DNA of 63,366 nt, counting the filler, from Dugesia japonica (lineage: Eukaryota): NCBI GenBank assembly GCA_001938525.1. It is 6 parts of 6 records of this genome, joined end to end, with 100 filler letters (N's around TTAATTAATTAA, not from the genome) between each part and the next. Parts side by side here need not be neighbours in the genome. Positions count along the whole stretch, not along the records: positions 1 to 10,134 come from MQRL01605893.1; 5 more parts are not named here. One strand, 5' to 3'. Shown here in pieces: positions 1,681 to 62,633 of this stretch (the first letter of the stretch is position 1; every line of letters begins with the position of its first letter). The notes beneath the pieces were generated by a model. The model did no database searches and was not told the origin of the DNA. It saw only the letters and a program-made list of their open reading frames with translations. The position numbers and the translations under genes were made by a program.

Positions 1681-2095
1681 ATGTTGCTGTCAAATATTAA
1701 TTATAAAGGATATACTACTGAAAATAGTCTTCAATTTACTTATAAGCCAAAACAATGTATATTAAAGTATCCCGATTATACAATAATCATATTTCCAAAT
1801 GGAAATGTAGAGTAATGGGTTGTAAAAAGCCATTAGAAAGAAAAAATCTTCCATTCAAAATAATTTTTGAACAAATACAATCAGTGATGGTGACTGCTTC
1901 CTTACAGATTTCAATAAATCTACAGAAATTGGCCGAAAAACCAAATTGTATATTTTCAGGTCTTTGATTAGTACTATTTAATCCTTTATGTGTAAATGAT
2001 TTTCATTCTGGGAAAATAGTAATAACCGGTTTGAAAACTTTAGATTTTTATGATGTTGTAAATATTATTAAAAGATATGTATTAGATTTGATAAN
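1681..2095 (+). pseudogene. TATA-binding protein (TBP)-like pseudogene
   Basis: Manual translation: MLLSNINYKG...YTIIIFPNG[frameshift ~1803]KCRVMGCK...IQSVMVTASLQISINLQKLAEKPNCIFSGL*LVLFNPLCVNDFHSGKIVITGLK. Matches both TBP repeats (ALIFSSGKMVCTGAK; IQNMVGSCD..I.LE.L....PGL...VLLIFVSGKVVLTGAK). One frameshift, one stop, EPELF absent. Confidence 0.8.
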
Positions 2096-3868: not shown

Positions 3869-5262
3869 TTATATGTTATCAAATAAATAATCGTTTTAAA
3901 ATTGTTTTTATTTTCATTAGCAGTGTAACAAATATATTTTTAAAAAACAAAAAAATCAATTTTATAAGAAAGTAAGCATTATAACATACAAGTTCATGAG
4001 ACAATCGTATCTGCATTTTTAATTTTCTATCTAATATATAAAAATAAAATAAAAAATAAAAATTTCTTTGTTTAACTTCTTTGTTCTCTGGTCTTTAAAT
4101 TTGGACGAAACAAATAACCTTTTGATACTATTCACTAATATAATGTATGAATAGTTTTTAATTCTTTATCGAATTGTTCAAGAATAAAATTTTAAAAATT
4201 CAAAATGGCGGCTATGTCGATTTTTAAAATTTCTTTGTTTAATAACCTTCTATGACGATGTCAACTAAAATTCTTTCATACACCAATTTGTTTGCCAACA
4301 AAAAGCGCGTCGTTCAATATCAAGTTCGGCGCGATATCATGTTTCTACTTGACTCTGTCTTCAAAAAACTAAATTCCTTTGTTCCCATTTTTCAACCGGA
4401 AGAAAGCATTTTAGGATACGAGTTCATGAGACATTTCTATCTTACTTTTTAATGTTATATTTAAACATAAATTTTCATCCAAATCAGTCTACTAATATCA
4501 AATTTGCGACTGTCCAAAAAATTTTATAGATAATAGGAACGAAAAGCTGCAAAATTTTTATAAATTGAGTAAGTAAGCGATTACGTAAACAAAATAATTA
4601 ATTTTTTGTGTTTTTAATCAGGAAGGAATTATTTTACGGTACAAATTCATTACATATTCCTATTTTACTTTTTAATTTTCTATCCGATGGTGCTACTCGT
4701 GACCTTGAATGACCTTGACAAAAAAAGGATTACCCTTAAAAATGAATGACTTTGAAAAAACCTTTAATGACCTTGTATAAAACAATTTAAAAAAATAAAA
4801 TTACAAAAAACAATTTTTAAAAAAATCAAAAAAAATTCGAATAAAGAAAAATTTATAAAAATGGAAAAAAATATTTTAAAAAATCTCTCAAAAAAAGAAA
4901 TTTTCCATCCAAGGAGATGCGGTCATGCTGACATGTCTCACTACTTTGATCTTTAATAGTGATTTTCATAGGGAAAGAATATTTTTACGCTACAGGTTCA
5001 TGAGACAATCCTATCTTACTTTTTAATTTTTTATCTTATGACATAAAAAAATTAGGAAAGAAAATGAAAGAAATTTGAAACTTTTAAACAAACAAAAAAT
5101 ATTAATATTAAGTTTGCGCGGGGAATTCAATTATAAAGTCTGTCAAATGATATGCCATGGGAATAACCTTGACTTACTTTCATTTAACCTTAACCTACAT
5201 TAATTCGATCTTGAAATAATGAAACAATCATAAGAGAAAATTATAAAGAAAAAATAAATGCG

Positions 5263-6798
5263 ATGTTAGAAGAATTACTAAATTTTATGGATGATAAAGA
5301 TCGAAATGAATCAAATTGTAATTTAGATTATATAATTGATTTTAAAATAGAACTAGAAAAATATCAATCATTAGTTGGTGGCGTCTATACTTATTGTGAT
5401 TTGCCGTTAGAAAGATATGGAATTATTAATATAAAAAATAAAGATGATAAATGTTTACTTTATTCTGTTTTAGCTCATAAATATGTTTTTCATAATGCAA
5501 GGCGAGTAAATAATTATATTCCACATTTACGCGAATTAAAAACAGAAGGAATGAACTTTCCATCAAGAATTGAAGATGTGAAGAAATTAGAAAAGTTAAA
5601 TGGTTTAAATATAAATGATTTTGAAAAAGATGGTAAATTAAAGATTACACCGCTTTACATTTCACATTACGAAGCAAAACCAAATCCAGAAGATGATAAA
5701 TGTAATTTGTTAATTTATTCACAACATTATGTATTAGTTAGAAATGTCGAAAGTTTATTAAATGTGCCTAGAGGAAATCATTCATGCTTAGGTTGTATGA
5801 ATCAATATTCTAATAAAAATGTTTTATTAAAACATCAACAAGAATGTTAAAAAATCAACAAAAACCAGCAAATGTGAAATTTCCTAATTATGATTATTTC
5901 GAATTTAAAAATAATTGCTTTATAAATAAAATGCCATTTCTTTTATATGGTGATTTTGAAGCATATACAAAAGAAAATAGAAAACAAGAAGCGTTAAGTT
6001 TAGGTGTTTATTTCAAAAGCGATTACCAAAAATTATTTTAAAGCGGATATTATGGATTCTCAGGAGAAAATGTTATTAATGATTTTATAAAGTTTCTTGA
6101 AAATATTAATTATCAATTTAGAGATGTTATTTTTAATAAATTAATAATAGATTACACAGGAACAAACCATCCAGAATTTATACCAAATCAATTATGTAGG
6201 TATTGTGATCAACCAATAACAGAAAATCCACTTAAAGACCATAACCATTTCAATGGAAAATTTCGTGGTTATGCACATTCAGAATGTAATCTTCAAGATA
6301 GAAGTAAAAAGAATTTATTTATACCATTTTACTTTCATAACGCGATGGGTTATGATAATCATTTGTTTTTTGAAACAACTTTTAAAGAAGCATCCAAATG
6401 AAATAAAGAAAATAATTCCACATTCTGATGATCAATGTATTTCATTTCAATATAAAAATATAAGATTTCTAGGTTCTTATAAATTATGTCCAACAACTGT
6501 TGAGAAAATGGGTGGTACATTATCTAAAATAAGAAATCATACCATATTAGATTCATTTAACTTAAAACCAAAGAAGGCATATTTTCCTTATTATTATGTA
6601 AAAGGAAATAATGCTACAGAAGTCATGCAACTATTAAAATTAAACAACATTCCAACAAAAGATGATTTCTTTACCATATTAAAACAAAAAGGAATATCCG
6701 ACGAAGATTATGCGATATTTCTAATTGACTTTGAACAATATGAAAATATGTGGCAATACATGTTACATTACATGAAACTTGATGTATTAATTACTTGA
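5263..6798 (+). pseudogene. Protein-primed family B DNA polymerase (pPolB), N-terminal/exonuclease half with inserted endonuclease VII; Polinton/adintovirus type
   Basis: IINIKNKDDKCLLYSVLA; C2HC finger CLGC...KHQQEC; ExoI PFLLYGDFE; EndoVII CRYC...KDHNHFNGKFRGYAHSECNL; ExoII FHNAMGYDNH; RFLGSY; KAYFPYYY; ExoIII YMKLDVL. Frameshifts and stops; polymerase domain absent. Confidence 0.9.
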
Positions 6799-7073: not shown

Positions 7074-7713
7074 ATGGATCATGTTACACCTGAAGATGGT
7101 AATATTAAAATTTATCGTGAAAGTACTGAAATTAATAAAGATATAAAAATAAATTACATTGAAATAATTTTTGTAAATAAAATTAAATTAAAGAGTTTAA
7201 ATATTAAGTTTGATACTTTAAATCAATTAAAAAAAGAATTTGAAAGTTTAAAACCAAAACTGCATAAATTTTATATTAGCAAAATTAATCTTTTTTTTAA
7301 AACTAATTCATTCAAAGAAATAAGAGAAATGTTTGATAATTACTTACCTTATTATTCAAATCCACATTTGACTATTTTCAATTAAACATGTAAAAGATGA
7401 TCTTCCACATTTTAGTATTTTAGAGAAATATGTTTATGATTTTAATTTTAAAAGAAAAGGTAAAGAACTTTTAATTATTGCTTTAAACACAAACATTAAT
7501 ACAAAAGTAAGAATAAATATTAATGCCTACGGACAAACAGAAAATTTTACATATGCCATTAAAATTAATACTATAACAATAGCATTTACACATTCTAATG
7601 AAAATATTAATATTTTTAAAGAAAGCACTGAAATTAATAAAGATACAAATATAAAGTATATTGCAATAGTTTTACCAGAAAAAATTAAGTTAAAGTATTT
7701 AACTTTAACTTAA
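7074..7713 (+). pseudogene. Frameshifted ORF with an internally duplicated domain (Polinton accessory)
   Basis: 7074-7385 and 7381-7713 are open in different frames; NIKIYRESTEINKDIKINYIEIIFVNKIKLKSL vs NINIFKESTEINKDTNIKYIAIVLPEKIKLKYL. Confidence 0.5.
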
Positions 7714-7715
7714 AA

Positions 7716-8327
7716 ATGTTATATAGAAAAATGGACGCGGACAAATTATATCCAGAGTTAAATGAAGAAAGAAATTGTTTTACTATTTTAGATTTAAAAA
7801 ATAAACTTGCAATGTCTAGAATTAAAGATTTTGAAAATGACCTTTACTTTATAAAAGATAAAATTAAACATTATAAGAAAATACATAAAAAATGGGAAAG
7901 AATTGATTCAAGTATAAAATATGCACAAATAATTGTTAGTGCAGGAATTGGAATTGGTGGTATTATATTAATTACTCCAATTAGAATAGCGCTTACAACA
8001 ATCGGTATACCAATTATAACAGGCGCTATTTCCATGTTACCTGTAATAGGAACATTAAACACTTCATTAATAAAATCTAGAAAAGAAAAATATGAAAAGT
8101 TAATAAAGAAACTTGAATGTGTTAAAAACAAATTATTCTTATTTCCACAGAAAGCTGTTAATGATGAAATTTTAACTGATGATGAGTTACTGATTTCTAA
8201 AAATATGGTTAATGAAGTTCATGAATTAATGTCTGGACATAAAAAAGCGAAAGATGAAAATTTAAAAATCCTACTAGAAAATCAAAGCAAGGTTATTAAT
8301 GAAATGAAAATGAAACTTGGCATGTAA
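7716..8327 (+). CDS. Polinton/adintovirus-type membrane protein (LYPxL start, central Gly-rich hydrophobic hairpin, KA..D..L...E tail)
   Basis: Intact 203-aa ORF: KLYPEL, coiled coil, IIVSAGIGIGGIILITP...IGIPIITGAISMLPVIG, KAVNDEILTDDEL. Architecture resembles a recurrent Polinton accessory family. Confidence 0.65.
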   Translation: MLYRKMDADKLYPELNEERNCFTILDLKNKLAMSRIKDFENDLYFIKDKIKHYKKIHKKWERIDSSIKYAQIIVSAGIGIGGIILITPIRIALTTIGIPIITGAISMLPVIGTLNTSLIKSRKEKYEKLIKKLECVKNKLFLFPQKAVNDEILTDDELLISKNMVNEVHELMSGHKKAKDENLKILLENQSKVINEMKMKLGM

Positions 8328-8410
8328 AATATTAGATGTAAAATGTTGAATGTAAAATGTTGAATGTAAAAGGTTGAATGTAAAATGTGATATGTAAAAT
8401 GTAAAATGTT
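8322..8410 (+). repeat. 14-bp tandem repeat (ATGTAAAATGTTGA), about 6 degenerate copies
   Basis: Read directly. Confidence 0.85.
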
Positions 8411-8439
8411 GGTTTCAGCTGTTCGCATGCGAACGGATA

Positions 8440-8757
8440 ATGATTAAATTAATTTTATTCCAAATAGCTACGGAAATGTCTACAACAGAAAGTGAATGTG
8501 AATGTGAAAGTGAGTGTGAATGTGGAACAATAAAAACAAATGAAAGAATTAAAAAAGGATATGACAAATTATTAAAAAAAGTTAAAAAATTATTTAAAAC
8601 AATAGAACCAGTAAAAAAAGAATTTTTACATATTATATTAGAAGAAGATCGTGGTGATTTAATATTTAAAAATCAACCGCCTAAAGAACATTTATTATGT
8701 TTAATAAAAAAAGGAATGGAAATAAAAAAAGAAAAAAAAGAAGAAAAAAATGTTTAA
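8440..8757 (+). CDS. Hypothetical Polinton-associated protein (ECECESECEC, Lys-rich)
   Basis: ORF track; overlaps the next ORF in compact, virus-like packing. Confidence 0.5.
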   Translation: MIKLILFQIATEMSTTESECECESECECGTIKTNERIKKGYDKLLKKVKKLFKTIEPVKKEFLHIILEEDRGDLIFKNQPPKEHLLCLIKKGMEIKKEKKEEKNV

Positions 8758-9954
8758 AAGAAAAATGCTTGAATTAAAAAGAAAGAAATTAAAAAGTATT
8801 ACATTTATTACAAAAATAATTATTCCATTGGCCTACGAACAAATAGTAATAAATAATTTCGAGAGAAAAAAGTGTTCGCATTTGAAAAGTAGTAACAATT
8901 TTTTCCATATAGAAATAGCAATTGAAGAATTATTTTATATATGCTGCCACAAATGTAAATATGTTTTTGATTCATATTTACGAGTAAATAATCCTGAACT
9001 TCTTGAACATCTTAAAAAATATGAGGAAAAAAGAAAAAGAGAAAATATGTTTAAAACTGGTAACATGATTGGATTTAATAAATTTGATGAAAAATGTTGG
9101 AATCAAATACAAATACCATCATTACAATTAAAAAAGAATCCATTAAAAAGGTCTCTGAAAATATGGTTTCACATAGAAAAACTTTTGAAGAAGAAATCGC
9201 TTCGCTGACCTCTGGACAAATAGAAGATATTAAAACTCTAGATGAAATATCTGAAATCGCTTCGCTGGCCTCCGGACAAATAGAATATGATAATGATGAT
9301 GTTACATTTGAAAACGCTACGCTGGACTACGTACAAGATATAAATATAAATGGAGATGTAGATATTTCATATGTAGATGTTTCATATGCAGATTTAAATG
9401 AAGATGTTACATGTGAAATCGAAAATGAACATGTAACACCTGAAGGCGGTATGTTGGACTACATACAAGATGAATCACCTGAAGATGTTGAATTTTATCA
9501 AAGATTTTCTAAATTACTTGTGAATCGTATTAATCCAGAATTGTTTAATTTAAATGATGCAATAATGTTACCAGAGAAACAATTAAATTATGAAGATGAA
9601 ACATTAGAAAATATTAATGATAATATTAAACAATGGGTTAATAATTTAAATGTTGGAAAAAGAATTGTTTTAATAAGTCTTTATAAATTGGGTTATTTCT
9701 TTAATTTATTAAAAACTAAATTTAAAAGTAATCGTGAAATAGAAGAACATTTACAGCAAATTGGAATTAACTATAAAATTAATTATATAAACAAAATAAT
9801 AAACTTATATAAATTTGCTAATCATTATCCGGAAATATTAAAATCAAATTGGTCATTTAGAACAATAGAAAAAGAAATAAAAAGAATTAAAATATTTTCC
9901 CGAGAAAATAAATTTGAACAATTAAGACAATTAAATTTTGTGTGTAATATTTAA
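8750..9954 (+). CDS. Hypothetical Polinton-associated protein(s): 8750-9208 (Cys/His) and 9094-9954 (acidic repeats + helical C-terminal domain), possibly one frameshifted gene
   Basis: Overlapping ORFs; internal repeats EIASL(T/A)SGQIE and LDY(V/I)QD; C-terminal LYKLGYFF...YINKIINLYKFANHYPEI. Confidence 0.5.
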
Positions 9955-29305: not shown

Positions 29306-32300
29306 CCTCAGAAAGAGCATGGAGTTTATACAGTTTTTGTTGAATTAGAAAATGCGAAAATTGAGGTAAAATATTAAAATTTTTTAATGTTAATTTATTA
29401 TAATTATGGATTATCTACAACCTATTTCAACAGATAAAATTTTGTTTCTATCGTATATAATCTACAAATAGTTTACTACTCAAATAATTTTATCAATTCA
29501 CTACTCAACAACTTTTTCATTATTCAATTACTCACAACTCAACAATCTTTTATTTATTAGAAGTGGAAATAAACCAGTTGATGTTACATATGATGATACT
29601 CAGTAGTTTATCAATAATAAATCTAAACCAAAATATAAAATTTGTCAATATGTACGGATTTCCCGAATTAGTAGTACACAATGTATCCAAAACTTTGATA
29701 ATAACTGGGGTGATGAAGTCTTTCAAATATTAGAAATCAACACTAGGAAGACCCCAATTATATACATTTGTAATTATATACAATTATATACATACAATTA
29801 CAAATGTATTACATACAGACATACATCTGTATGTAATACGCGAAAAAGGTGATAATATTATTCAAGGTAAGTTTTATAAGCATGAATTAAAAGTGTTGTT
29901 TGAAAAGCCAAGTATTTATCAAATCAAATCAATTCTCAAAACCAAAGGTAAATGACAATATAAGCAAGATCTAGTTGAATGGCATGGGTATTCAAAACTT
30001 ACTCGGATTCAAGCATCTCAAAAAGAATGAATTTTTATATGGTTTTGCCAATAATAGTTGTTCTAGAAAGTAGAAGGATCCTAGCGCACTGAATCACCCC
30101 TCCCCTTCCTCAAGGTTTAAATTTTTCAAGGTCACTGATACAGTATACTTGATTCTGATTGGTCCGGGATCTAGTATACTCAACTTTGATTAGTGGTAAA
30201 TTTGAAGATTGAATTTTCAAGGTCAAACTGATACAGAATACTCGATTCTAATTGGTCGAAATATTTTCAATGTCAAGGTGATATAGTATCCTATGATCTC
30301 ATTGGTCGAAGTGTTTCAAAGTCAAAGTGATATAGTATCCTATGATCTCATTGATCGAAGTGTTTCAAAGTCAAAGTGATATAGTATCCTGTGTTCTAAT
30401 TGGTTGATTCGTTTCAAGGTCAAAGTAATATAGTATCATGCAATCTGATTGGTCGAAGCATTTCAATCAGATCATTCCAGTGATCTGATTAGTCGAAGCG
30501 TTTCAAGGTCATCCGGCGAGATTTCTTCAGACAGACTTAATATTTAAATTCTCCGACAAAACTTAATATTTAAATTTCCCGCGCAGACTTAATATTTAAA
30601 TATCCGCGCAGACTTAATATTTAAATTTCCCGCGCAGATTTAATATTTAAATTTCCCGCGCAGACTTAATATTTAAATTTCCTGCGCAGANNNNNNNNNN
30701 NNNNNNNNNGTTTTATTGTTTCAATTATTTTTTTTTGGTTTCAATTTATTAATTTAATATTTTTTTGGAATCAATATTGATAACTTTATTAGAACATATC
30801 ACTCGTACCATGAAGAACAAAACATGCGAAGTTTGTAGAATAGATAAGAAAAAGAAAATTAAAATAAAATTAGCGAAACTTATTTAGACAAAATCAAATA
30901 AGAAACATTGTATATAATTTTGATAGGTTTTTTTTATAAAATTGACTTCTTATAAATTATAATTTGTAATTATTATTAAAAGATAAAAAATAGTTTTAAT
31001 TTTGTATTTGTAATAATAAAAATGTAACAGCTTTACAATATGGATTGAAATTGAACTTTGAAAGTAAGAATAANAATAATAATAATAATAATAATAATAA
31101 TAATTTTAGATGAGTTTGAAGTGCTCATCGGATAATTAATGTCAAAACTCGTTTCCATAAAAGTTTTATTAACAAAACAAAACTATATCCAACACTATTT
31201 GTTTATTTAAACAAATTAACATTCTGTGTTTTAATTGATTATTATTTTTCAAATATTAAAATTTGAAACAAAATTTTTACTTTATTATTAAATTGATATT
31301 AAGAGCCTTGTTTAGTGTTCTTCTCCTAAATCATTCGGAGTTTTGAGAATATAGCTTGATAAAAAATTNNNNNNNNNNNNNNNNNNNNNNNNNNNNNNNN
31401 NNNNNNNNNNNNNNNNNNNNNNNNNNNNNNNNNNNNNNNNNNNNNNNNNNNNNNNNNNNNNNNNNNNNNNNNNNATTTATTCTTAGTTTTCTTGTTTTTT
31501 AATTACTTTGATGACTAGAGTATGAGTTTTGTAGTTTCGTTGACTATACTATGTATCTACAGTGTATTATCAGAATGAAGTCCTTCTAAATTTCATTCGT
31601 CCCTTAAATTGAATACACGTTTTTTATGTTACTTTTTTTTACAGAAGTGAAACCAGTTTTCCATTGTCATTGTTTACAAAATTTAAATATTTACAGTTTA
31701 AAATCTAAAGCTATAAAACTCAAGTAATTTTGTGCTGTTATTTTGAAATATNAACAAAACAAAGTTTGGATTTTTTAATGAAGAAAGTTTTGACGAACCC
31801 TGATCTTAAAAATTGCTATTGTTTATTCAAACAAATTAAAATTCTATGTTTTAATTGATGATTAATTTTCAAATATTAAAATTTTAAAAAATTTTTTACT
31901 TTATTATTAAATCGTCATTTCAAATTTAAAACAAAATAATCATTTGTTACTAAATTTTCATCCAAAATTTGAAACAAATAAATCACTCCTTATTAAATTT
32001 CCATTTAAAATTTAAAACAATAAGTTTTAATAATTGAATTTTCATCCAAAATTTAAAACAAAATAATCATTCGTTATTAAATCTTTTTATCAAAATTTAA
32101 ATATTTTAAATGAAAACATTTTAAGAAAAATTTTAAAAAAAGGTAACAATAATAATAATATTAATAATTGTTAGTTGGTTATTGAAAACTCATTGAATCA
32201 TTAACATCAGAATTCAAACTCATTACACCGATTTATTAATACATAAAACTATAACATTATTAGTTGTTTTAACAAACAAATTTAAAAATTCATATTCAAA

Positions 32301-34001: not shown

Positions 34002-37000
34002 AATAATTATCATTGAAAAGAACTGATTGAACTTAGTACTGAATTAACTCAATTTCTATTGGCTAAAAATACTAAATAATAATTATATTTTATTATACGT
34101 CAAAATACATACATACACATGATTTTTTCTTAATGATATTTCTTAAAGAAACCTTCAATTTTCGATTCATAAACAATGATATTTAACCTAAAACATAGAG
34201 TAAGTTAATTGTGATTCGGTATTTGCATTTAATGTTATTTCTTCGACAATGTANNNNNNNNNNNNNNNNNNNNNNNNNNNNNNNNNNNNNNNNNNNNNNN
34301 NNNNNNNNNNNNNNNNNNNNNNNNNNNNGATTTTTTTGATTTTTATGTACTTGTATACACATGTAGGATTATATTTCCTATAATAAAAATAGTAATATAG
34401 AAATTTAAAAAGGTCAATGATAATTATTGACAATGACAAATTAAAAAAATTTGAATTGAAAAAAACTTGCTAACTGCCGAAAATTTGCAAAAATTTAAAA
34501 TAACTAATTTAAATTGAAAATTGAACACTTATTTCTTGGCCACAGTCAGAAAATTCAGAAGAAAGTCGAAAACAATTCAAAGACTGAATAAAACCAATTG
34601 TATTCATTTTTAATAAGAATTAGGATTGACGAAAAACAATTATTTTTCAAACATTAAAATAGAAAGAAAATAAATTATTAAAGGGTTNNNNNNNNNNNNN
34701 NNNNNNNNNNNNNNNNNNNNNNNNNNNNNNNNNNNNNNNNNNNNNNNNNNNNNNNNNNNNNNNNNNNNNNNNNNNNNNNNNNNNNNNNNNNNNNNNNNNN
34801 NNNNNNNNNNNNNTAAAATTGTTAATTTCATTGGTAATTCATTTTTTACATTTCTATTAAAGGTATTTTAAACTAATTGTGTAATATTTTAATCTTTAAA
34901 CACATCAAACATCCCGGTTGTCCCAACATTGAAACAGGAGACTCTGCAGGGCTCAACAGAATTCCTCTAGCAATTAAATATAAAATAATTAACATACTAT
35001 TAATAAAAATAACTGAGATTAAACCCTTTACAAAAATTATTTTCTTATTAAATTATTTCCCCCTACTGAAGAAACTTCTAAGTTTTTCCTGTCCATTTTC
35101 TCCTTGTACTGCATACCGTCTTTCGTGAATTCTCTCAATTATTCGAGGTACTTCAAATCTGTCTTGACTTTTATTTCTTGTTTCTATCTTAATGAGTACA
35201 AAATCGCCTTCTATTCTATTAAAACAATATTGTCCATGCTTTGTTGAAAACGTAGTTTTTTCTCGAGATTCTTCTTTGAGCTCTACTTGATGTTATGCGT
35301 TTCCTAAATCTATTTAACTAAAATATTGAGCTCCATCTAACTTCTCCAGCATTTCAGCGACATTCACAAGGCTTGTCTTTTCGTTACTGCATTCAATTTT
35401 CTGAAATTCAAACATATTCTTATGTCTTTCTTTTCTTTTTTCAAACACAGATCAGTGGGGTATTCCATGGAGAGTTGCATTTCCGGATAATATTATTCTC
35501 GAAAAGGTTTTGGATAGCTTCTTCAATTTTAGATTCTAAGTTTTTATTGGTTGCCTATACGATTTACATTGATTGGTTCAGCACCTGTGAGTATTTTGTG
35601 TCTTATTAGATGTGTGCGTCCTACATCCCATTTATCTGCCATAAAAGCATCTTCTTTACTTTCAANNNNNNNNNNNNNNNNNNNNNNNNNNNNNNNNNNN
35701 NNNNNNNNNNNNNNNNNNNNNNNNNNNNNNNNNNNNNTAATTTTCGACTTTTTCATCCGTTTTGCTGTCGACCTTTTGCACAAGCTGTTATCCAAAAACC
35801 TTCTGAATGTCTATTTCTTCTATCAGATCTGGTGTTACTCTTTCAGCAACTAAGAACGTAATCTCTTTGCAAACTTCATCAATTATCACTCCAATTTTAA
35901 CTTTTCCAACAATTTAAAGTGTACTATTATTTGCATAACGCAATCTTTCATCACTGATTTCTAAATTTACTTATCGTAATTTATTAAAACAACTCAAACT
36001 CATCACGTTAATTCTACCCCTGTATCTAATAGACATTCTACTTTTTTCCTTTGAATTGATACCGTAACACTTGGTTTGCCTTGCAATTTATGGTACGAAA
36101 TGTTTGTTTTATTTCCTGTTTCAACTGTTCCAACCCATTCTACTTTTCTATCATCCGCAAAATTTTCCCTCCTTATGAACTTGTATACTTTTTCTGTAAC
36201 TTTCCGGATATCATCCCACTTTTCGACTCCTTGAGGATAATTACTAACTTCATTTAACAATTGCTCCAACCAACTCCTCTACTGGTGGAGCGCTGTCTTT
36301 TGGGAACTGCCTTTCGCAATCACTTTCATATACTTCCTCATATCCATCGTTTGTACTGACATCTTCATCTTCAATCGCATTTACTCGATTATATCGGTTT
36401 CTTGATCTTTCTGCACTCATAAATTTTTAACTTGTTCTTTTCAATTTTAAATTTGTGTAGCACTCTTCTGCTCTATGTTCACCATTACCACATCGTTACA
36501 CCTCACTTCTTGACATAACCTTTTAATATGACCAACCTTTCCACATTCAAAACATTTTGTTGGTTTTTTATTTGGACAATCTCGACTTATATGTCCAGTT
36601 TTAGGACAAGTCCAGCACACTACCCCTTTTTTGGTCGGACAATTTGCTTTAGTATGACCAATCTTATGACATGATCAACATTCGATGTTTTGTTTTTCCT
36701 TTCTTTGTTCCACATGTCTATTCACTGTATGATTTACATGTTTCTGATAATTTCGATTTGTAACTCTAGCGTAACTTCGATCTTTGTAAACTCGATCTCT
36801 ATTTTTCTCCATGCAATCTACTAATGTCATTGTTTCTTCAATTTCTTCTATATTCTTTCGTTTCCTCAAAGTCACTTTTTCTTCAACCTTTTTATTTTCT
36901 GAACAATATACTAGCATTTTTGCTACCATTTTGACTTTTGTAAAATCTTTATTTGTAAATAATCTTTCCACTAAATCATTTATATTTTTAAAATAAACTT

Positions 37001-37488
37001 GAATTTTTTCCTTTCCACGCTTGTAGATAATCAAATTTTGAAAATCTTTGATAAAATATTTATCTTTCTCAAAAACGAGCCTGAAAACCTTCAAATTCTT
37101 TCAACGTCTTTGCATATTCTTCCAACAAATCTTCATCTAACATACAAGAGACTAATCTCTCCTGTTTTCTCACATGGGTATTGTTTTTAGCTTCAAAATA
37201 CAATTCACACCTTTTGATAAATTTCTCAATATCTTCTCCTCTGCAGAAAACTTTTGGCAATAACCTCTCTGTAATGAAATCGGTGTTTACCATTCCCACC
37301 ATGTTAGGTAAATCTTCAATTGGTAATTCATTTTCCAAATCAGTACTAATATTTTGGGACATAATTTATTTTACTAATACAACTCTGCTATTTATAAATA
37401 ATTATCATTGAAAAGAACTGATTGAAACTTAGTACTGAATTTACTCGATTCCCATTGGCTAAAAATATCAAATAATAATTATTTCCTT
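34002..37488 (-). mobile_element. Internally deleted gypsy element with ~85-bp direct-repeat LTR remnants (34002-34087, 37397-37488)
   Basis: gag LLPKVFCRGEDIEKFIKRCELYF, four CCHC knuckles (36480-36680), protease CLLDTG, RT start (CNSPWNTP, IRICLNFRKLN), integrase tail, PPT-like AGTAGGGGGAAA ~35055. Confidence 0.88.
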
Positions 37489-42744: not shown

Positions 42745-45700
42745 TATGATCTCATCCAATAGAAATTGATTTATCTGAATATTAATATTGAAATTCTTGT
42801 ATTTCAATATTATTTATATTATGAAACGTGTGTTAATTATGATTTGCAAAATTAATTACCGATTAAAAATTTACCCAACATGGTGGCAGCAGTAAATACC
42901 GATTCTTTTACAGAGAAGTTATCGCCAAAAGTGTTCTGCAGAGGAGATGATATTGAGAAATTCATCAAGCGATGTGAATTGTATTTTGAAGCTAAAAACA
43001 TCACTCATTTGAAACAACAGGGTTGATTAGTCTCTTGTTTGGTAGTGAAGATTTGTTGGAAAAATATGTAAAGACGTTTAAAATAATTGAAAGTTTTCAG
43101 GCTCGTTAACGTATGGTATTTGAGAAAAAGAAAGATTTTATCAAAGACTTTCAAAATTTGATTAACTTCATGCGTGGAAATGAAGAGATTCAAGTTTATT
43201 TTTAAAATGTAAAAGATTTAGTGGAAAGATTATTTACAAATGAAGATTTTACTGAAGAAAAAATAGTAGCAAAGATGCCAGTATATTGTTCAGATAACAA
43301 AACAGTTGAAGAAGAAGTGACTTTGAGGAAACGAGAGAATATAGAAAAAATTGAAGAAACAATGATGTTAGTAGATCAAGTAGAGAAAAAGAGAGATCAA
43401 GTCAATGCAGTTAGAAGTTACACGAGAGTTATTAATTTAAATTATCAGAAACCGGTAAATTATACAGTGTATAGACATGTGGGGAAAAGAAAGGAAAAAC
43501 AAAATATCAGATGCTACTAATGTCATAGGTTTAGTCATACTATAGCCAATTGTCGGACAAAATAAATTGTCATGAAACAGAACAAACAAGTCGAGATTGT
43601 CAAAATAAAAAACCAACAAAATAAGTAGGATATGTCAAAAAGTGAGGTGTAAACGATGAGGTAATGGTGGACATTACGAGAAGTAAATTTACAAATGAGT
43701 GATGAAATATTGCGTTGTGCAAATAATGTTACACTTGAAATTGTTTGAAAAGTTAAAATTGGAGTGATAATTGATGAAATTTGCAAAGAGATTAGTTTCT
43801 TTATTGAAGAAAGAGTAACATCAGATCTGATAGGAGAAATAGATATGCATAAGATTTTTGAGTACTAGCTTATGCGAAAGGTCGATAGCAAAACGGATAA
43901 AAAAGTCGAAAATTACATTTGCAATATTGAAGTAAAATTCGAAAGAGAAATTAAAAAAGGAGAGCGATTGACAAGAGGCTTAAATATTTTGAAGATTAAA
44001 GAGGATCAACGGTTATTGAAAATAATTGAAAGTAAAGAAAATGCTTTTATGGTAGATAAATTAGATGTAGGACGCACACATTTGACAAGACACAAAATAT
44101 TCACAAGTGGTGAACCAATCAATGTAAACCGTATATACAACCAATGAACTTAGAATCTAAAATTGAAGAAGCTATCCAAAACCATATCGAGAATAATATT
44201 ATCCGGAAATGCAACTTTCCTTGGAATACCCCACTGATCTGTGTTTGGAAAAAAAGAAAGACATAAGAATATGTTTGAATTTTAGACGATTGAATGTAGT
44301 AACGAAAGGACAATCCTTTCGAATGCCTAATGTCGATGAAAAGTTAGTTGAAACCAAAAAATTAAGTTCAATAAATTTGGGAAATATCTACTAGCAGGTA
44401 AAGCTTGAAGACTGTATTTTCAACGAAACACGGACAATATTGTTTTAATAGAAGGTCATTTGGTATCGTAGTGGCACACTTTAGGAAATGATGACAAAAG
44501 TGGTAGGCGGAATCAGATTCCAAGAAAGGGAAGATTAAAACGAGAATAATGAACATAATTGAAAAGGAAAAACAAGATCATTCAAATATTTCTGAGGAAA
44601 CAGATTTGATCAAGAAACTGACAATTCCGGATGACAAACTACGTGAAACAATTGTAGAAATACATATATTATTATGTCATGCAGGATTTGAAAAGGTGTA
44701 CGAATATATGAGAAAAAATATATTGCAAAGAATTTGTGCAACCAAATACAGAAAGTAGTTCGAAGTTGTGAAATTTGTCAAAAGACCAAAGTAGTGACAA
44801 CACCAACTAAAGAGTAGAAAAAGAGTTTAGAAGCTACTAATTTATTTGAAGTGATATTAACAGATATATGTGGGCCAATGTGGGAAACAAGTGAAAGGAA
44901 AAAATACATTCTTGGAATATCCGACCTTTACAGTAAATATCTGGTTCTTATACCATTGCCTAGACACGACAAGGAAACAATATGAAACGGTATTTTTGAA
45001 ATGTGGTTACTGATATTTGGATGTCTGAGAGAGATAAGATTAGATTTTGGAAAAGCTTTTGAATCTAGAGTAATGAGAGAGTTTGCACTGAAGGTAGATG
45101 TTAAACTTTGCTTTTTGAGTCCATATCATTATATTGCAAAAGGAAAAATTAAGAGACAGTTTAGAGCAGTTTAGTTTAATTCAATTCAAGATTTGATTAA
45201 TGCAACACTTCAGGAAAGAAAGAACATATTAGACAGATCTTTTTCCGAAAATAGAATATACAATGAACTCAATAAAACAAAAGACAACTGGAAAGAGTCC
45301 GACTGAGATCGAATTTAGAAAGAGAATTAGCAGAGAAAAGTAGTACGAGTCAGACATGTTAGATGGAACTAAAGAAAATTTTTCTTGACGTGATAACTAA
45401 AATAGAATTCAAAGTGGGTGATGTTCTACTCATCAAGGTAGACACAAGAAATAAAAATCAAGAGAGATTTGAAGGTCCTTATCGAATAATTGAGAAAATT
45501 CATGAAAGACGGTATGCTATACAAAGAGAAAATGGACAGCGATTAGAAAGAAATGTGGAAAAACGTAGGAAGTTTCTTAAGAAGAGGGATATGAGGAAAT
45601 ATTTATTAATTAATAATCCCATCCAATAGAAATTGAGTTATCTGAATATTAATATTGAAATTCTTGTATTTTCATATTAATTATATTATGAAACGTGGGT

Positions 45701-45968: not shown

Positions 45969-47493
45969 CTTAGTAATTGTAAAAAATGGGGTACCAGTCA
46001 TGTTGCTCCAAAGGGCAGTAGTAATAGTAGTACAAGTTTAGGCATGAAGCTGTATTTCCTATGCTTTGTGACTAGAAATCATGTATACTCTTACGCAAGC
46101 TACCGTTCACTACGTTTACTGCATTTCACGTCATAAAGCATAGAAAAAATCATTTTTAGACTTAAAGTCGTTCTCCTATTACTACTTGTTTTCATTTTAT
46201 TTTGAATAAACAGGAATAAATAAAAAACTAAAAAAAATTTTATCATTAAGCACTGGAATTTAATATAAAAAAACGATGAATAAAAAATGTGAATTAAAAT
46301 CTAAAATTTAATTTTAGATAATGTTAATAAATTAAATTTTAAATACCTGCTTGTTTTTAAAATTAATATATATAAATATAAATTTTTTATATAAATTAAT
46401 ATATAAAAATTTATTAGTATAAAAATCTGAAAATTTATATTTTAAAAACGTTTTTTAATTAGAGAAATGATAGGAATTTTAAATTTTATTAATTGTAGAT
46501 TTTTTATAAAAAGTTATTTTGAATATTTTGAATTTCTTAATTAGTAAATTCAATTTCATTAGGTTTAAATTTATTTATAAAATATCATTTTTTATGTTTA
46601 GAAAATCGTTTATACTAATAATAAATTTTTCAAAACAATAATTACATTTTCATTGATAAGTTAATAAAGTTTTACAATTTCCGAAATCACTATGATTATA
46701 TAATTTAACTTTTCCTAGAAATATTTCACCACAATCATTACAATTATATTCTCTCATTTTAATATATAAATTTTAAATACAATAGATAATTCTAAAAATC
46801 ATCTGAACACTGATGAATTAAAAATGATGAATTATTAGAAAATAATGATATTTGAGTATTTGATGTATTTTTGAGTATTTTTGTATGGAAACGGTTGGTT
46901 TTAATATTTTTTGATGTGAGAAGAGGGGAGTCTTGATACTTTTAAAGGGAAAATTTTTTGGTGGGAAATAAAAAAAAATATTTTTAACGAGAAATTTAAA
47001 ATTTTATTTTTAAATAAAAGAAATTTTTTTAAAATTTAATAAAATTTTTTTGAGAAGACTTTATATTTATGTAAGAGATGAGGCAGTCTTGACATTTTGC
47101 ATGGGGAGTCTCTATATTTTGCATCGGATGGAGCAGTCTAAAATTCATAGTCACGTGATTTTCAATGTATGTCTTGCACATGAGTTGCATACCTATTGCA
47201 TTTTTTTAAAAAAATCAATAAAAATTCCGAGGCATGTATTTTCAGTTTATGTGTGTTGCATCTGAATAGCATTTGATCTGCCTACATATTGCATTTATTA
47301 ATAGAAACTTCCCATGCACGTTATTTTTAGTTTGTGTGTTGCATCTGAGTGTCAACCTTATTGCATACATACTGCATTTATTAATAAAAATAATTAAACT
47401 TTCAATTATAAACAATTAACTAAAATATGAATAAATTAAAGACGATTAAGATAAAGACATTAAGAAATTATGCGCATTGTTGTCTATCTAAAT

Positions 47494-47718
47494 TTTGGAC
47501 CTAGCGATAGAAGAAAAATATAGCTTGTATGTCAATTATTGAAATCAAAGTTATTCAAGTCTAAATTTAAACAAATATACTTACATGAGAAGCAGGGACT
47601 GACTAAATCTGAATTTTCTAATATTAAAATGAAAATAATAATTGGTTTTGATTCTAATTGGAGTAAACGATTAAAACTAGGTGATGTTATTGTTGTTGAT
47701 GATTTGTATCAGGAGGCT
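47494..47718 (+). pseudogene. Packaging ATPase remnant fused to integrase
   Basis: Degenerate Walker A FGPSDRRKI* in frame with Walker B VIVVDDL. Confidence 0.6.
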
Positions 47719-48543
47719 ATAGAGATGATTCCGTATTCAAAAATGAATAAAGGATACAAGTATATTTTAACATGTATCGATGTATTCAGTAGATTTGGAA
47801 GACCTGCTCCTGTTTAATCAAAATCTGCTAATGATATGGAACCAGAAATCAAATATATGTTTACAAATTGACATCCAGATAATTTACAAACGGATTTTGG
47901 TAAGGAATTCTACAATTCCAAAGTGAAACAACTTAGAAATCCTCTATCGATAAACCATTATAATATATTCTCTCAGTATAAAGCTGCAAATGTAGAGAGA
48001 TTTAATCGTATATTGAGAGATGCATTGAAAAAGTACTTTTTACATGTTGGTAAAAAGACTTAAATAAGTGTTTTACCGAAACATATTCATAGTTATAATC
48101 ATTCTGCTCATAAGGAATTAAATGGAGGAAGACCAGTTGATGGAAAAACAAACAATCAATTAAAGTTATGGTTATTGCAAAAATATTCAAAAGCAAGTAA
48201 AACACCAAAGTATAACGTTTGCGATCATGTGAGAATATCGTAAATATCAGCTTAGCCATATATCAAGAATTTCAATAGTAATTGGAGTAATGAAGTGTTT
48301 CAAATAACAAAAACCATTATGAAACAATATCTGGTCATGAATGTTATTAAAGATTATGAAGATAATATCGTGCAAGGAAAATTCTATGAGGAAGTATTAC
48401 AAGTCATTCCACCACCAGAGATATATAGAATAGAAACAATAATCAAATCAAAAAGATCAGGAAAGAATAACCAATACTATGTAAAGTGGCATGGATACAA
48501 AAGAGTAAGTTGGATATTAGCATCACAAATAGTCAATCAGTAA
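47719..48543 (+). pseudogene. Polinton retroviral-like integrase with chromodomain
   Basis: NKGYKYILTCIDVFSRF, LQTDFGKEFYN, KAANVERFNR, NWSNEVFQI, VQGKFYEE, QYYVKWHGY. Confidence 0.92.
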
Positions 48544-48554
48544 GAACATTTAGA

Positions 48555-49632
48555 TGAAATCAGATAACGTCTATTCACTATTACCTAGTAATAGTAGTCC
48601 ACTAGTTCATCCAAATAATACTGCTAGTAATTATGTTGTTTAGCTTCAAAATCCAATTTACATGGATGATAAATGGGAAGTTGCCAAAATGGATTTTAAC
48701 TTTGTATATTCAGCCATACCGATTTATAGTCAATCTAAGATTGAATATGAATTATTTAAAATAATTCAGAAAAAACTAATACTTGATGTTAACAATAAAG
48801 AAAAAACGTTTTTTAACTGTTAATTTTCGATAAAAATATAAAAATAATACGGAAACAGTTATAAAATTATCGAAAGAAATCGTTTTAATCTTTACTAGTG
48901 ATATTACATACCACAGTTTATTATTTGAAAATCGGGAAACTATAAAGAGATTTTCACGTTTTAACGGTGAATAAGTAAGTGAAAAGAATACATTAAGTTT
49001 TTATGCTAATAAGCATTTTGGAGATAAAAGATTTTTTCTTGGCTTTCAGAACTTTAAAGACGATGATTCCATTGAAAAAATAAATATTAAATATTATTAT
49101 CCGATTGTAACTGAACATTCCTTTCAATTCAAATCTGAATTGCATATATAGAGGATTTAAATCAACTAAATGCATTTGTAAACACTACTTTCTAAAGTTA
49201 TTTAAAACGTTTACATTAAAGCAAGATGAACTATTTGAATTTACATTAGCAATTGAAGCTAAAAGTGTTAAATTCGAAAAAATCTTAACAAAAATATTAG
49301 GATTAAAAGAATCGCAATATACTCGAATACAATTGAATGATAAACAACCACTAAATAAACGTAATATGAAACCTAGAATATTAAAGTGTAATAATGAAAT
49401 TTTCATCTATTGTAGTATTGTTAAACCTATAATTGTCGGAGATGTTAATGTTCCTTTATTCAAAGCAGTTTGGATAGAAAAACATGAGAATGATGATGTA
49501 GTTCAAATAATTGTTGATCATCCGATGTATCTACCTATTTCTTCATCATATATAAAAAATATAGAAATCAATATACGTGATGATAGTAGAAAACTAGTCA
49601 ACTTTGCCGAAGACTCAAAAACACATAATTAA
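48555..49632 (+). pseudogene. Polinton minor capsid (penton-like) protein
   Basis: LPSNSS..HPNNTASNY...PIYMDDKWEVA at the N-terminus; IFIYCSIVKPIIVGDVNVPL...PMYLP...IEINIRDD at the C-terminus. Confidence 0.85.
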
Positions 49633-49634
49633 TA

Positions 49635-49860
49635 ATGAATCCTGATATTGTATCATTGTATAGTACTAGTCAAGAGGGTGGAGAAATACCTTACTTTCTT
49701 AGAAATCAGTATGGATCTGGGTGGTTATGAACAATAGGGATATTTTCTTAGCCTATTCTTAGACGTATTGGTGATTTTGGTATGAAATCAGATCAGGATG
49801 TTCTAGGTAATTACGGAAAAATACTAACTACATTTAAATCAAATGAATTAAAACTGGTGA
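49635..49860 (+). pseudogene. Small Polinton core-like protein with QxGG/QYGSG motifs
   Basis: MNPDIVSLYSTSQEGGEIPYFLRNQYGSGWL*; lies directly after the minor capsid gene. Confidence 0.6.
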
Positions 49861-50379
49861 AGTCTTAGTAGAAACAATATGTGATATGCATAATGAAAAT
49901 GTTGATTTAACTGAAGAAAATAATCATTTAAAAAATGTTTTAAATAATAATAATTTATATAATATAGAAGATTAAAACTTTAGAGAGAAAATAAAAAAAA
50001 ATTTTCACAGGATCAAAATCAATACTTAGTACATTGAGAAATAAAGTATCACAAAAAGTAGTGTCACGAACCCGCCATCCCCCGGGGTGGGGGTTTCAAT
50101 ATGTGACAGTGCGCTACTATCTTTCTACTAATAGAATATAACTTACTTATTTACTCAATAAAATATAAGTTACTCATTTACTCATTTACTCAACTACTCA
50201 TTTACTTTGTAAAATATAATTTACTCATTTACTCAATTTTCATATTAATAATTTTTCAGTGGTAGTTTTCTAGACCATTATAAATAGTTATTCTAAGTAA
50301 AACTATATTTTAAAAAATATTATTATTTTGATTATTATAATTTATAATTAATTATATAACTTTATATTAATCCGAGATC

Positions 50380-59519: not shown

Positions 59520-61590
59520 TCAACCCCTATGTACACATAAAATCTATAAATCTTTAAAAAAAATAACTTATTTTCAGTAGACACAAAAAACCAAACATTA
59601 ATCAATGAAAAATACTCATAACAATTATACATTCATAACCTTGAACACTCATAAAACTCATACATTTATAAACACTATAACTTCATACTCATAAAAGTAA
59701 TACAAACATAAACCCTATTAATTCATAAACCATATACATTCATTAACCAGAAATATTCATAAACCTTATTCACTCACAAAACCCATACATTTGTTGAGTT
59801 AGTACACACGCAGATATACACACACAAATATACACACACATGCAGACATATAAAATAAAGAGAATCAAGATCAAGAAGCCATCAAAAGATGCAGAAAATA
59901 ATTATCAAGATCAAAAGAGGCAGAAGATGTGAAGATGATCCTCAAATGTTATAACAGCAAATTATCTGACATTGAATTATCTAATTGCGTTTGACTTGTG
60001 AATTATTATGATTATCTGACATTGAATTATCTAATTGCGTTTGAATTGTGAAGTATTATTTTGTGAATTATTGTAAATTGTTTGTGAATTATTTGCTTTT
60101 GTTATAAATAGCTATATTATTCAAATTAAATAGCTATGTCATTCAAATGGTTGTACTATAAATAAGTCAATAGTAAAATTGGTAATACTTTATTATTAAT
60201 ATTCTATAAATATTTTCTGAATAATACTTTATTATTAATATTTTATAAATAAATAATTTGTTATAGAAAAATTCTATAAATATTTTTATGAATAATAATT
60301 TGTTTTAATAATGAATGATAATTTATTTTAATAATGGATGTTTGAATGATTGATAGGTGTGTGTTCTAAAAATCAGTATAAATACTGATGATAATTGTAA
60401 ATTTTTCAGACATTCTTTGAANNNNNNNNNNNNNNNNNNNNNNNNNNNNNNNNNNNNNNNNNNNNNNNNNNNNNNNNNNNNNNNNNNNNNNNNNNNNNNN
60501 NNNNNNNNNNNNNNNNNNNNNNNNNNNNNNNNNNNNNNNNNNNNNNNNNNNNNNNNNNNNNNNNNNNNNNATAATATATCTTTTATATATATTACAGTAT
60601 CTACATATATTGATTAACAATAAAATCAGTTACACATAAACGAACGAACCATAAATATCTTTTGTTGAGTTGTAATACCTAACACATTCATAAAACCTAT
60701 GCACTCATAAACCGTATACATGCAATAATCAAATACATCCATAAATTCTATACATACATAAACACTATACATTCCCAATCCCCATACACTCATAAACCAT
60801 ATTCACTTATAAAACCTATACTTTCATAAACCATTTTCAATCATAAGCCATAGAAAAATTCATAAATCTTATACAGCCATAGTCCCTATAAACTGATAAA
60901 CACTATTCCTTAATAAACCCTATACATTCACAATTCCTATACACTTCAAAACCCAATTCACTTATAAACCATGAATAGTTATACACTCATAAATATCATG
61001 CACTTACAGAACCTAAAAAATGATAAACTCTAAACATTCATAAACCTATAAATCTATTTTAAAAAAATAGAAAACATTTACACAGTAAATTCATAAAACC
61101 TATAAACACAAAACCATCAACATTCATCAATGAAAAATACTCATAACTCGTATACACTCATAAAACCCATAAATTCATAAACAATATACACTCACAAACT
61201 AAATACACTTATCAACCCAATTAATTCATAAACAATAAACATTCAATAACCAAATATATTCATTGAACCTTAACATGCATAAAATCTATTCCCTAATAAA
61301 ATCCATGCACTCATAAACTAAATACATTCATAAAACATATATTCACAAACCTTCACTCATAAACACTATTCACTCAATCAACAACACTCATAACCTGATA
61401 CACTCATAAAACCCATACATTCATAAACCAAATAAATTCATAAACCCTCTACACTCATAAATTATACTTCTTCATAAATCTTTACATTCATAAACCATAT
61501 TGACTCATAAAACCAATACATTCATAAACTGTATGCATTCATAAATCATATACACTTAAAAACCATATACATTCACTAACAAAATACATA
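59520..61590 (+). repeat. Degenerate ~17-18-bp C/A-rich minisatellite (CATTCATAAACCCTATA-like), interrupted by a solo LTR
   Basis: Read directly; very low G on the + strand. Confidence 0.85.
59792..60684 (+). mobile_element. Solo LTR with 4-bp target-site duplication (CATT)
   Basis: CATT|TGTTGAG...CCTAACA|CATT; TGTT/AACA inverted ends; internal 50-bp tandem duplication ~59960-60060. Confidence 0.75.
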
Positions 61591-62633
61591 TGGTTTTAAT
61601 GAAGGCATTTTTCATTTTCCGAAGAAAATGAAGAAGTTCCTAATGAAATATATGAAAGGAAATTCATTTCAAACTTTTTAATCTACTTTTCCAAAACGAC
61701 TCCCATGCAAAACACTTTGGTTGTCATCTTTCAGTGACTGTTACTGTATTTACAACTCCCACTTTAGTGCTAGTTTCCCTTTGAATATTTAAATCATAAA
61801 CGTTTATTCAAATAAGAGAGATATATAAATAAACATATTATTTAAGCAAATTTACCTATTTTACTTGTTATTCTTTTATTTTAAGTGAAATTTAAATTAA
61901 TTTGAAGAATTAATTTTTCAAAAAAATAATGAAAATTAATGTTTCAAAAATCAATTAAATTTTAAAAACTGAAAAAAAAATTAAAAGATCTACTTAGAGT
62001 CTAGAATACATTGATCGAAGAAATGAAACATAAATTACCCTACGATAAATAATGATAAGAATTATTTTATTTTGTGATATAACAATGAAAAAATATGTAA
62101 CTTAACATTGCTGAAATTATCTTGTTAATTTTATAAATAAATTTAATAGGTTTATTAAAATTGTATTACCGGCTGTATAGAGATTATTTTCAACATTTCA
62201 ACTATCGAGTAAAGTGTTAAAACATTCCAAAGAAATTTGAAATCGAATGAAGAAATTTAGAAAATTTACTGTTGCTCTATGTATTGTGTATATACAAAAT
62301 AGTGAAAACGAATTGAGACGAATAATACGAAAAACTAATTATAACTCAGCTACTAATAGATTATGAATTCAACTACAATTGGATATTGATAATAAAGAGC
62401 ATCTTTACTAACTTCAAACTAATAAAACCAAATTTTCCAATTCTATGCGAGATTTTGATGTAAGTTACACGAATTGGATCTCAGCCTAAGAGTCATTACA
62501 AAAAAAAGATAAACTTGAAAACTATTAATAATCAACTAATTCAACAAAAGGACAATAGTGTTATAAATACAATTACTGTGAGAATAATTGTTAGACTTGA
62601 ACATTGATCGGTTTTCAGATTTCATTAAAATAT

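Follow-up and report, generated by a model that had tools for sequence, protein, structure and literature searches.

The window, i.e., the whole stretch of 63,366 nucleotides analysed here, which is AT-rich eukaryotic DNA with numerous N runs, carries a broken gene for a protein resembling the TATA-binding protein (TBP), and this gene belongs to a family whose intact members are found on contigs with Polinton hallmark genes. From the residues of these proteins and from a box located upstream of virion genes, we estimate with a probability of about 0.6 that the intact protein would be a one-protein promoter factor for late genes, binding YATAAAC(A/G) and recruiting TFIIB and RNA polymerase II (Pol II) of the host. 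Polintons have capsids but no RNA polymerase, and a self-encoded TBP together with its box would be a concrete answer to the question of what turns on their virion genes. The dead copy of the window is valuable as a pointer to this family.

The TBP-like gene of the window and its surroundings

The TBP-like gene lies on the + strand in two pieces. The 5′ piece (1681-1806) encodes 42 aa with a reduced first repeat and ends at a frameshift; it is 93% identical over aligned residues to the intact protein P0003, with a short in-frame deletion. The 3′ piece (1803-2093), whose frame differs from that of the 5′ piece, comprises 97 codons corresponding to the end of repeat 1 and to repeat 2, with one in-frame TGA at 1965-1967. 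Scanned alone, with an X at the stop codon, this 3′ piece matches the Pfam TBP family PF00352 (E 1.2e-6, 28.7 bits for a curated cut-off of 22.9) as well as solved TBPs (best E 3e-7), so that its TBP likeness is not a matter of chance. All the TBP-repeat motifs that an earlier note on this DNA had read in the gene are present where it had placed them. The same note had counted one frameshift and one stop; both are found, but the damage was understated, since alignment with intact relatives reveals two in-frame deletions in addition, one of which takes out the acidic stirrup loop of repeat 2. As these deletions add to the frameshift and the stop, the gene is a dead copy with more than two lesions. 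In the upstream region (1627-1680, +), the TATA box is decayed, and downstream the frame enters an N run (2095-2156), where no stop codon is visible.

The gene occupies a 468-nt island flanked by this N run and by another one at 1609-1626, and its presence on the same scaffold as the Polinton DNA polymerase gene (pPolB) therefore depends on scaffolding. Contig pieces from public sequencing runs of one organism were placed on positions 795-2540 of the window (1331 and 1020 pieces from two runs, with 85-99+% likeness). Two sister-copy contigs bridge the left gap (1557-1684), whereas the right gap, which conceals the end of the frame, is crossed by a weak joint only, a single contig that connects the gene end to position 2305 with a short side of 29 letters. 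The summed depth is far higher over the TBP-like gene than immediately beyond the gap at 2095-2156: the gene belongs to a multi-copy family in the species, although the depth gives no copy number. The sister copies have sequence where the window copy is broken, and they have a TATA box of canonical type, situated about 40 nt ahead of the start. Some of them may be weakly transcribed. In an oligo-dT RNA run, about a quarter of which was read, 302 reads were placed, most of them partial and none at least 99% alike, with low depth over the TBP-like gene; a second RNA run provided 15 reads, none on this gene.

Upstream of the TBP-like gene, a decayed gene (374-1180, +, with an N run at 745-794 inside) corresponds to the gene that neighbours TBP in intact relatives (tblastn E 3e-8 at 836-1180); its orientation is unchanged, and this gene order is conserved between the window and the family loci. 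Its homolog in locus L013 resembles Pox_I3/DUF2738/DUF5871 proteins (atlas matches), which we take to have a single-stranded-DNA-binding role, and the gene at 374-1180 is likely a homolog of such a protein (SSB-like hereafter). A short AT-rich GT..AG intron is predicted at a similar place in the SSB-like genes of the window and of L002, L003, L005, L007 and L010; intact vertebrate Mavericks are reported to show no introns (PMC8097293, partial text).

Downstream, the pPolB gene (5215-6795, +) is broken and truncated. It corresponds to the N-terminal and exonuclease part of the protein, contains an endonuclease VII/HNH-like insert and matches a relative of 1207 aa no further than about residue 680; a search for the polymerase domain across the window did not find it. 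HNH inserts have been described in pPolB2 (bioRxiv 2023.08.22.554363, partial text). The earlier note had located the TBP-like gene 3 kb upstream of pPolB on the same scaffold and strand: the distance (3.1 kb) and the + strand hold, but an N run lies between the two genes and pPolB is broken. Of 169 inverted pairs around 1-10 kb, the 25 longest include no terminal inverted repeats, the window being gapped and the contigs partial. Other repeats are present in this region, namely an 82-nt repeat in four dispersed copies upstream of the pPolB piece (3955-5040) and, to its right, a 117-nt direct repeat (77%) within two small ORFs (7084-7200 and 7586-7702). The latter is followed by four longer open ORFs (7689-9951) without Pfam matches, which are probably further genes of the element.

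A family of TBP-like proteins on Polinton contigs

A search with the 3′ piece retained 24 proteins out of 26 candidates, the best of them being 71-72% identical and 146 aa long. A profile built from 22 of the 24 led to 57 clusters (50% identity) at E ≤1e-30, and a search with a second subtype to 226 proteins at E ≤1e-10, a set that overlaps with the previous one. Intact proteins of the family have 144-180 aa, and those nearest to the window copy 144-146 aa. The intact protein P0003 matches Pfam TBP with 72.7 bits in two stretches, and its predicted model has a pLDDT of 94. The comparison with the TBP fold, which the earlier note had called for, was run on this intact protein and gave a match to TBP (Foldseek E 5e-9, TM 0.77); the 44 top matches have E ≤0.001, and all matches listed are TBPs. 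The model also aligns over all 146 residues with an rmsd of 2.5 (VIA Z 13.7), with a structural identity to cellular TBPs of 21-29%. According to this model, the family keeps the two-lobed saddle of TBP.

The P0003 model contains no helix of four or more residues before residue 83, i.e., the helices of the N-lobe are absent. The longer subtype represented by L020 keeps both of them, and the loss of helices is therefore graded across the family. When tested against canonical TBPs, the N-lobe helix segment has a median length of 22 versus 33 residues and a net charge of 0.5 versus 4.

Among 80 metagenome loci, 25 correspond to family members (L001-L023, L025 and L061) and the others to cellular-type or virus-like canonical TBPs. 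Polinton hallmark genes are present on 9 of the 25 family loci, including all six family contigs longer than 4.5 kb; the 16 loci without hallmark genes span 1-3.4 kb. Genes for an A32-like ATPase, an rve integrase, an adenain-type protease and a PLA2-like protein share contigs with intact TBP relatives. The integrase, the packaging ATPase and the maturation protease occur with a family TBP in L002, L006, L009, L015, L017, L019, L020 and L061, and L020 carries in one piece pPolB, the PLA2-like gene, TBP, ATPase, integrase and a capsid-like ORF. The capsid-like ORFs (410-425 aa) have no Pfam match and align mutually at the expected place, their label resting on size, order and this mutual alignment and not on profile matches. 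Intact copies are thus linked to ATPase, integrase and protease genes, and in L020 to pPolB, which bears out the proposal of the earlier note that a Polinton lineage carries its own divergent TBP.

Two other types of ORFs recur on these contigs. One of them (150-190 aa, with a "D-x-E" start and no Pfam match) often lies directly before the TBP gene; it was observed near TBP or the protease in L009, L011, L012, L016, L017, L020 and L061, and its fold might, at a guess, be exonuclease-like. Leucine-rich-repeat ORFs with a signal-peptide-like start are located behind a YATAAAC box in L016 (1618-1971) and L021 (1307-1843).

A box before virion genes and a rebuilt DNA-reading face

The motif YATAAAC was first picked by eye upstream of ORFs, and for some hold-out loci (L007 and L013) the sequence upstream had been viewed beforehand. 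On the seven discovery loci, 52 sites share the strand of the genes and one lies on the opposite strand, whereas AATAAAC is evenly distributed (12/12); CATAAAC exhibits a strand bias (18 versus 1) like that of TATAAAC. On 16 hold-out loci, an ORF starts 20-60 nt downstream of 8 of the 11 YATAAAC sites, for a null expectation of 6% (p 3e-8). No such enrichment was detected for one-letter control motifs (5/37 and 9/111 before starts) or for sites on 94 non-Polinton loci (13/245). The distance from box to start has a median of 36 nt, with 34 of 40 values between 29 and 43 nt, which fits a TATA-like element preceding a very short leader.

The box discriminates between classes of genes. Within the 90 nt that precede the gene, it occurs for 19 of 27 virion-module genes, those behind it encoding packaging, protease and likely capsid proteins, versus 3 of 33 TBP, SSB and KilA genes (Fisher p 1.6e-6); the remaining 8 of the 27 virion-module genes lack it within 90 nt. 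The canonical TATAWAAG has the opposite distribution (0/27 versus 7/33), and canonical TATA-type boxes precede 4 of 19 family TBP genes. Several YATAAAC boxes overlap the upstream ORF, 43-112 nt from its end and thus well before its stop, and the frames vary, which speaks against both a polyadenylation signal and a codon effect. The polyadenylation signal was also rejected on its own counts, AATAAA being found before starts in only 12 of 205 cases. In the window itself, a YATAAAC box is present at 47407, just before a decayed ATPase piece.

Residues were counted over 86 intact members anchored on L070, to which we assigned yeast TBP numbering. Three intercalating phenylalanines, F116, F190 and F207, are kept in 86, 85 and 86 of the 86 proteins, respectively, and the fourth one, F99, is replaced by proline in 82. 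N69 is kept in 79. On the DNA-reading face, the changes V122R, T124M, L205N and N159S/T are each found in 85 of 86 proteins, L061 being the sole exception at all four positions, and V71N, V203C and I194R in 68, 66 and 63. This face is thus rebuilt with residues that are invariant in the family. In yeast, changes at I194, V203 and L205 alter TATA specificity in the mutant TBPm3, and the C-lobe of TBP reads the 5′ half of the box (PMC1636458, partial text). Two glutamates of the repeat-2 stirrup (C.L3.2 and C.L3.4), which bind TFIIB in known TBPs (PMC7221094, partial text), are kept in 79 and 85 of the 86 proteins and lost in the window copy. This conservation is partly circular, because one search pattern contained the stirrup; among the 68 proteins found by HMMER, the two residues are kept in 62 and 67.

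We propose the following mechanism. Host TBP would read the early genes. The TBP-like and SSB-like genes would count among these, and a canonical TATA box precedes several of them. The viral TBP, with its rebuilt face, would then bind YATAAAC, as suggested by the box and the residues together, and the kept acidic stirrup would, judging from its residues, dock TFIIB. The shortened or lost N-lobe helices could allow the protein to evade host regulators such as Mot1/BTAF1 and TAF1 (PMC7221094, partial text). The genes driven by YATAAAC would be expressed late. For the broad Polinton lineage, we lean slightly towards the view that a stripped TBP escapes host regulators and pairs a private box (YATAAAC, or ATGCAAA after a switch of the face) with borrowed host TFIIB and Pol II.

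The most serious alternative, which we nevertheless consider unlikely, is that host TBP, or another factor of the host or the virus, recognises the box as a late promoter or initiator, the viral TBP acting at early genes or at the ends of the element. TATAAAC is close to the canonical TATA box and could therefore serve host TBP at 34 of the 52 discovery sites; CATAAAC/TATAAACA presumably overlaps the forkhead core; and the late initiators TAAAT of poxviruses and TAAG of baculoviruses are similar to the box. All the Polinton loci compared carry a TBP, and since the statistics thus cover TBP-carrying Polintons only, the box may be general to the Polinton group and have another reader; viral contigs searched with ATPase, capsid-like and integrase queries for a TBP-less Polinton yielded no usable locus. 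CATAAAC sites, however, behave as TATAAAC sites do, whereas the C-terminal Pro191 of host TBP is said to permit only T at the first position of the box (PMC1636458, partial text). The forkhead reading is weakened by the rarity before starts of GTAAAYA (1/41) and of the reversed box (2/44) and by the enrichment of YATAAACG, which is not a forkhead motif (8/13). In addition, the box differs where the face of the TBP differs: in L061, ATGCAAA precedes starts in 6 of 8 cases and YATAAAC in 0 of 3, for one element and a motif picked by eye.

Two further readings seem to us improbable, and about equally so. In the first, the protein is a decoy or dominant-negative factor that sequesters TFIIB or TBP regulators and shuts host transcription. 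The kept TFIIB-binding glutamates and the loss of one phenylalanine and of the hydrophobic DNA face would agree with such a role, but a decoy would not require new DNA-face residues that are constant across 85 of 86 proteins, and the surfaces that have been lost are precisely those contacted by host regulators. Between the two roles evoked in the earlier note, redirection of the host polymerase is thus better supported than a decoy by the kept stirrup, the rebuilt face and the box, and would be the likelier role. In the second reading, the viral TBP pairs privately with a TFIIB or other co-factors encoded by the element instead of host TFIIB, as could be imagined from the giant viruses, which often encode TBP and TFIIB together (PMC7221094, partial text), and from the partial state of most family contigs. 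No TFIIB or RNA polymerase family was detected by Pfam among 94 ORFs of the family loci, including the 18-kb stretch of L020 (94 of 115 listed ORFs were scanned, those left out being mostly overlapping shadow frames); a short divergent TFIIB could escape such a scan. The stirrup itself is host-like.

Origin of the family and comparison with known systems

The tree of TBPs was built from 155 hand-chosen rows and 153 columns, partial and near-duplicate rows being left out, and other eukaryotic TBPs stood in for the TBP of the host. The 87 family rows, including the 3′ piece of the window, lie on one side of a branch supported at 100/99. The other side contains 31 eukaryotic, 27 archaeal, 6 divergent and 3 giant-virus-like rows (L056, L085 and L091, labelled so from their gene content and not named giant-virus TBPs) and one TRF2-like row; in this tree, the bootstrap had not fully settled (0.973). 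A search of genome contigs for TBPs retrieved archaeal and canonical-type proteins only, and viral contigs provided no usable locus with the TBP alignment, the L020 TBP, a stirrup DNA pattern or a giant-virus-like TBP as query. The tree with TBP and TRF2 suggested in the earlier note thus gives a single family clade apart from cellular TBPs, inside which the window copy falls together with five intact relatives (support 100/99). The window copy is therefore not a recent retrocopy, as that note had argued. AU tests on 53 rows rejected none of the candidate sisters of the family, i.e., the TRF2-like protein (p 0.81), giant-virus-like TBPs (0.58) and canonical TBPs (0.34), and the deep branching is unreliable because the free tree search missed better trees.

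It is very improbable that the gene is a host TBP/TRF2 pseudogene, processed or captured, that lies by chance near a Polinton on a gapped scaffold, as its broken state, the N runs on both sides and the AU results for TRF2-like and canonical TBPs as deep sisters might suggest, given its 71-72% identity to the intact family versus 21-29% structural identity between the family model and cellular TBPs, its nesting within the family, the conserved order of the neighbour gene and the many sister copies in the species. A recent host-copy origin is largely refuted, and an ancient capture from a host paralog may have taken place.

The family shares with cellular TBP and TRF2 (PF00352) the two-lobed saddle, N69, three of the four phenylalanines and the acidic stirrup of repeat 2. 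It differs from cellular TBP by the replacement of F99 by proline, the rebuilt DNA face and the mobile-element context, and the subgroup of the window copy is about 30 residues shorter, with N-lobe helices absent in the model. The TRF2-like row of the tree (P0187) lacks two phenylalanines that the Polinton family keeps. Giant-virus TBPs share the fold, the kept S3 phenylalanines and an unconserved N-lobe regulator surface (PMC7221094, partial text; BFVD matches); their two TFIIB-binding glutamates are reported to have diverged, and they supply a TFIIB of their own (same partial text), whereas the Polinton family keeps these glutamates and has no TFIIB or polymerase gene in the ORFs scanned.

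The closest functional parallel would be the vTBP of beta- and gammaherpesviruses (KSHV ORF24 and EBV BcRF1, with a TATT late box), which also combines a TBP mimic with a variant box in a nuclear virus without an RNA polymerase of its own (PMC7498053, partial text). ORF24, however, is large, binds the Pol II CTD through an N-terminal domain and needs five more viral activators (PMC7498053, partial text), whereas the Polinton TBP is a bare saddle with a host-like TFIIB stirrup and a presumed late role. A CTD-binding N-terminal domain is absent, the whole 144-146 aa chain aligning to the TBP core. By analogy, the Polinton TBP would work like the herpesvirus vTBP without being a member of that family.

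The elements themselves resemble adintoviruses and Polintons in their pPolB, rve integrase, packaging ATPase, adenain, PLA2-like and pX-like genes, and TBP lies outside the eight vertebrate core genes (PMC8502044 and PMC8097293, partial texts). We found no published description of the TBP family or of the box in a literature search outside of which lay most subscription journals. "TBP" appears in the legend of Fig. 5 of a 2021 article for MELD viruses with an adintovirus-like PolB (PMC8502044, partial text). The words TBP and TATA have no match in one supplement file of that article or in the main text of PMC8097293, bioRxiv 2023.08.22.554363 and bioRxiv 2026.06.19.733378.

Virophage relatives of Polintons borrow the machinery of giant viruses. 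If our proposal is correct, Polintons would be able to make virions without a helper virus, and their TBPs and boxes would constitute a natural set of orthogonal TBP-promoter pairs. The protein would also be a minimal natural TBP, revealing which surfaces initiation needs, and a natural TBP of altered specificity. A 146-aa protein and a 7-nt motif make the proposal testable.

Several other features were observed in the window and in the contigs. A second decayed Polinton virion module (47407-49865, +) contains ATPase, integrase, minor-capsid-like and basic-core-like pieces, and scraps of Polintons at 11147-11318 and 29565-30018 correspond to a minor-capsid-like C-terminus and integrase pieces. 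The window also contains a host cathepsin-L-like gene with an I29 propeptide, apparently split by introns (15379-16657, -), and decayed pol pieces of LTR retrotransposons at 12729-13495 (+) and 19013-22371 (-), the second with reverse transcriptase and RNase H matches. A long inverted duplication (35089-37349 and 42833-45539, 83-94% identity) includes one ORF with a weak match to the Plavaka transposase, and tandem arrays at 30122-30708, 14960-15239 and 59578-61596 are made of units of 49 nt (with a CCAAT-like ATTGG core), 26 nt, 14 nt and 17 nt. Finally, L085, L086 and L091 are contigs from bacterial genome bins that carry a eukaryote-type TBP among virus-like genes and are probably giant-virus or mirusvirus DNA.
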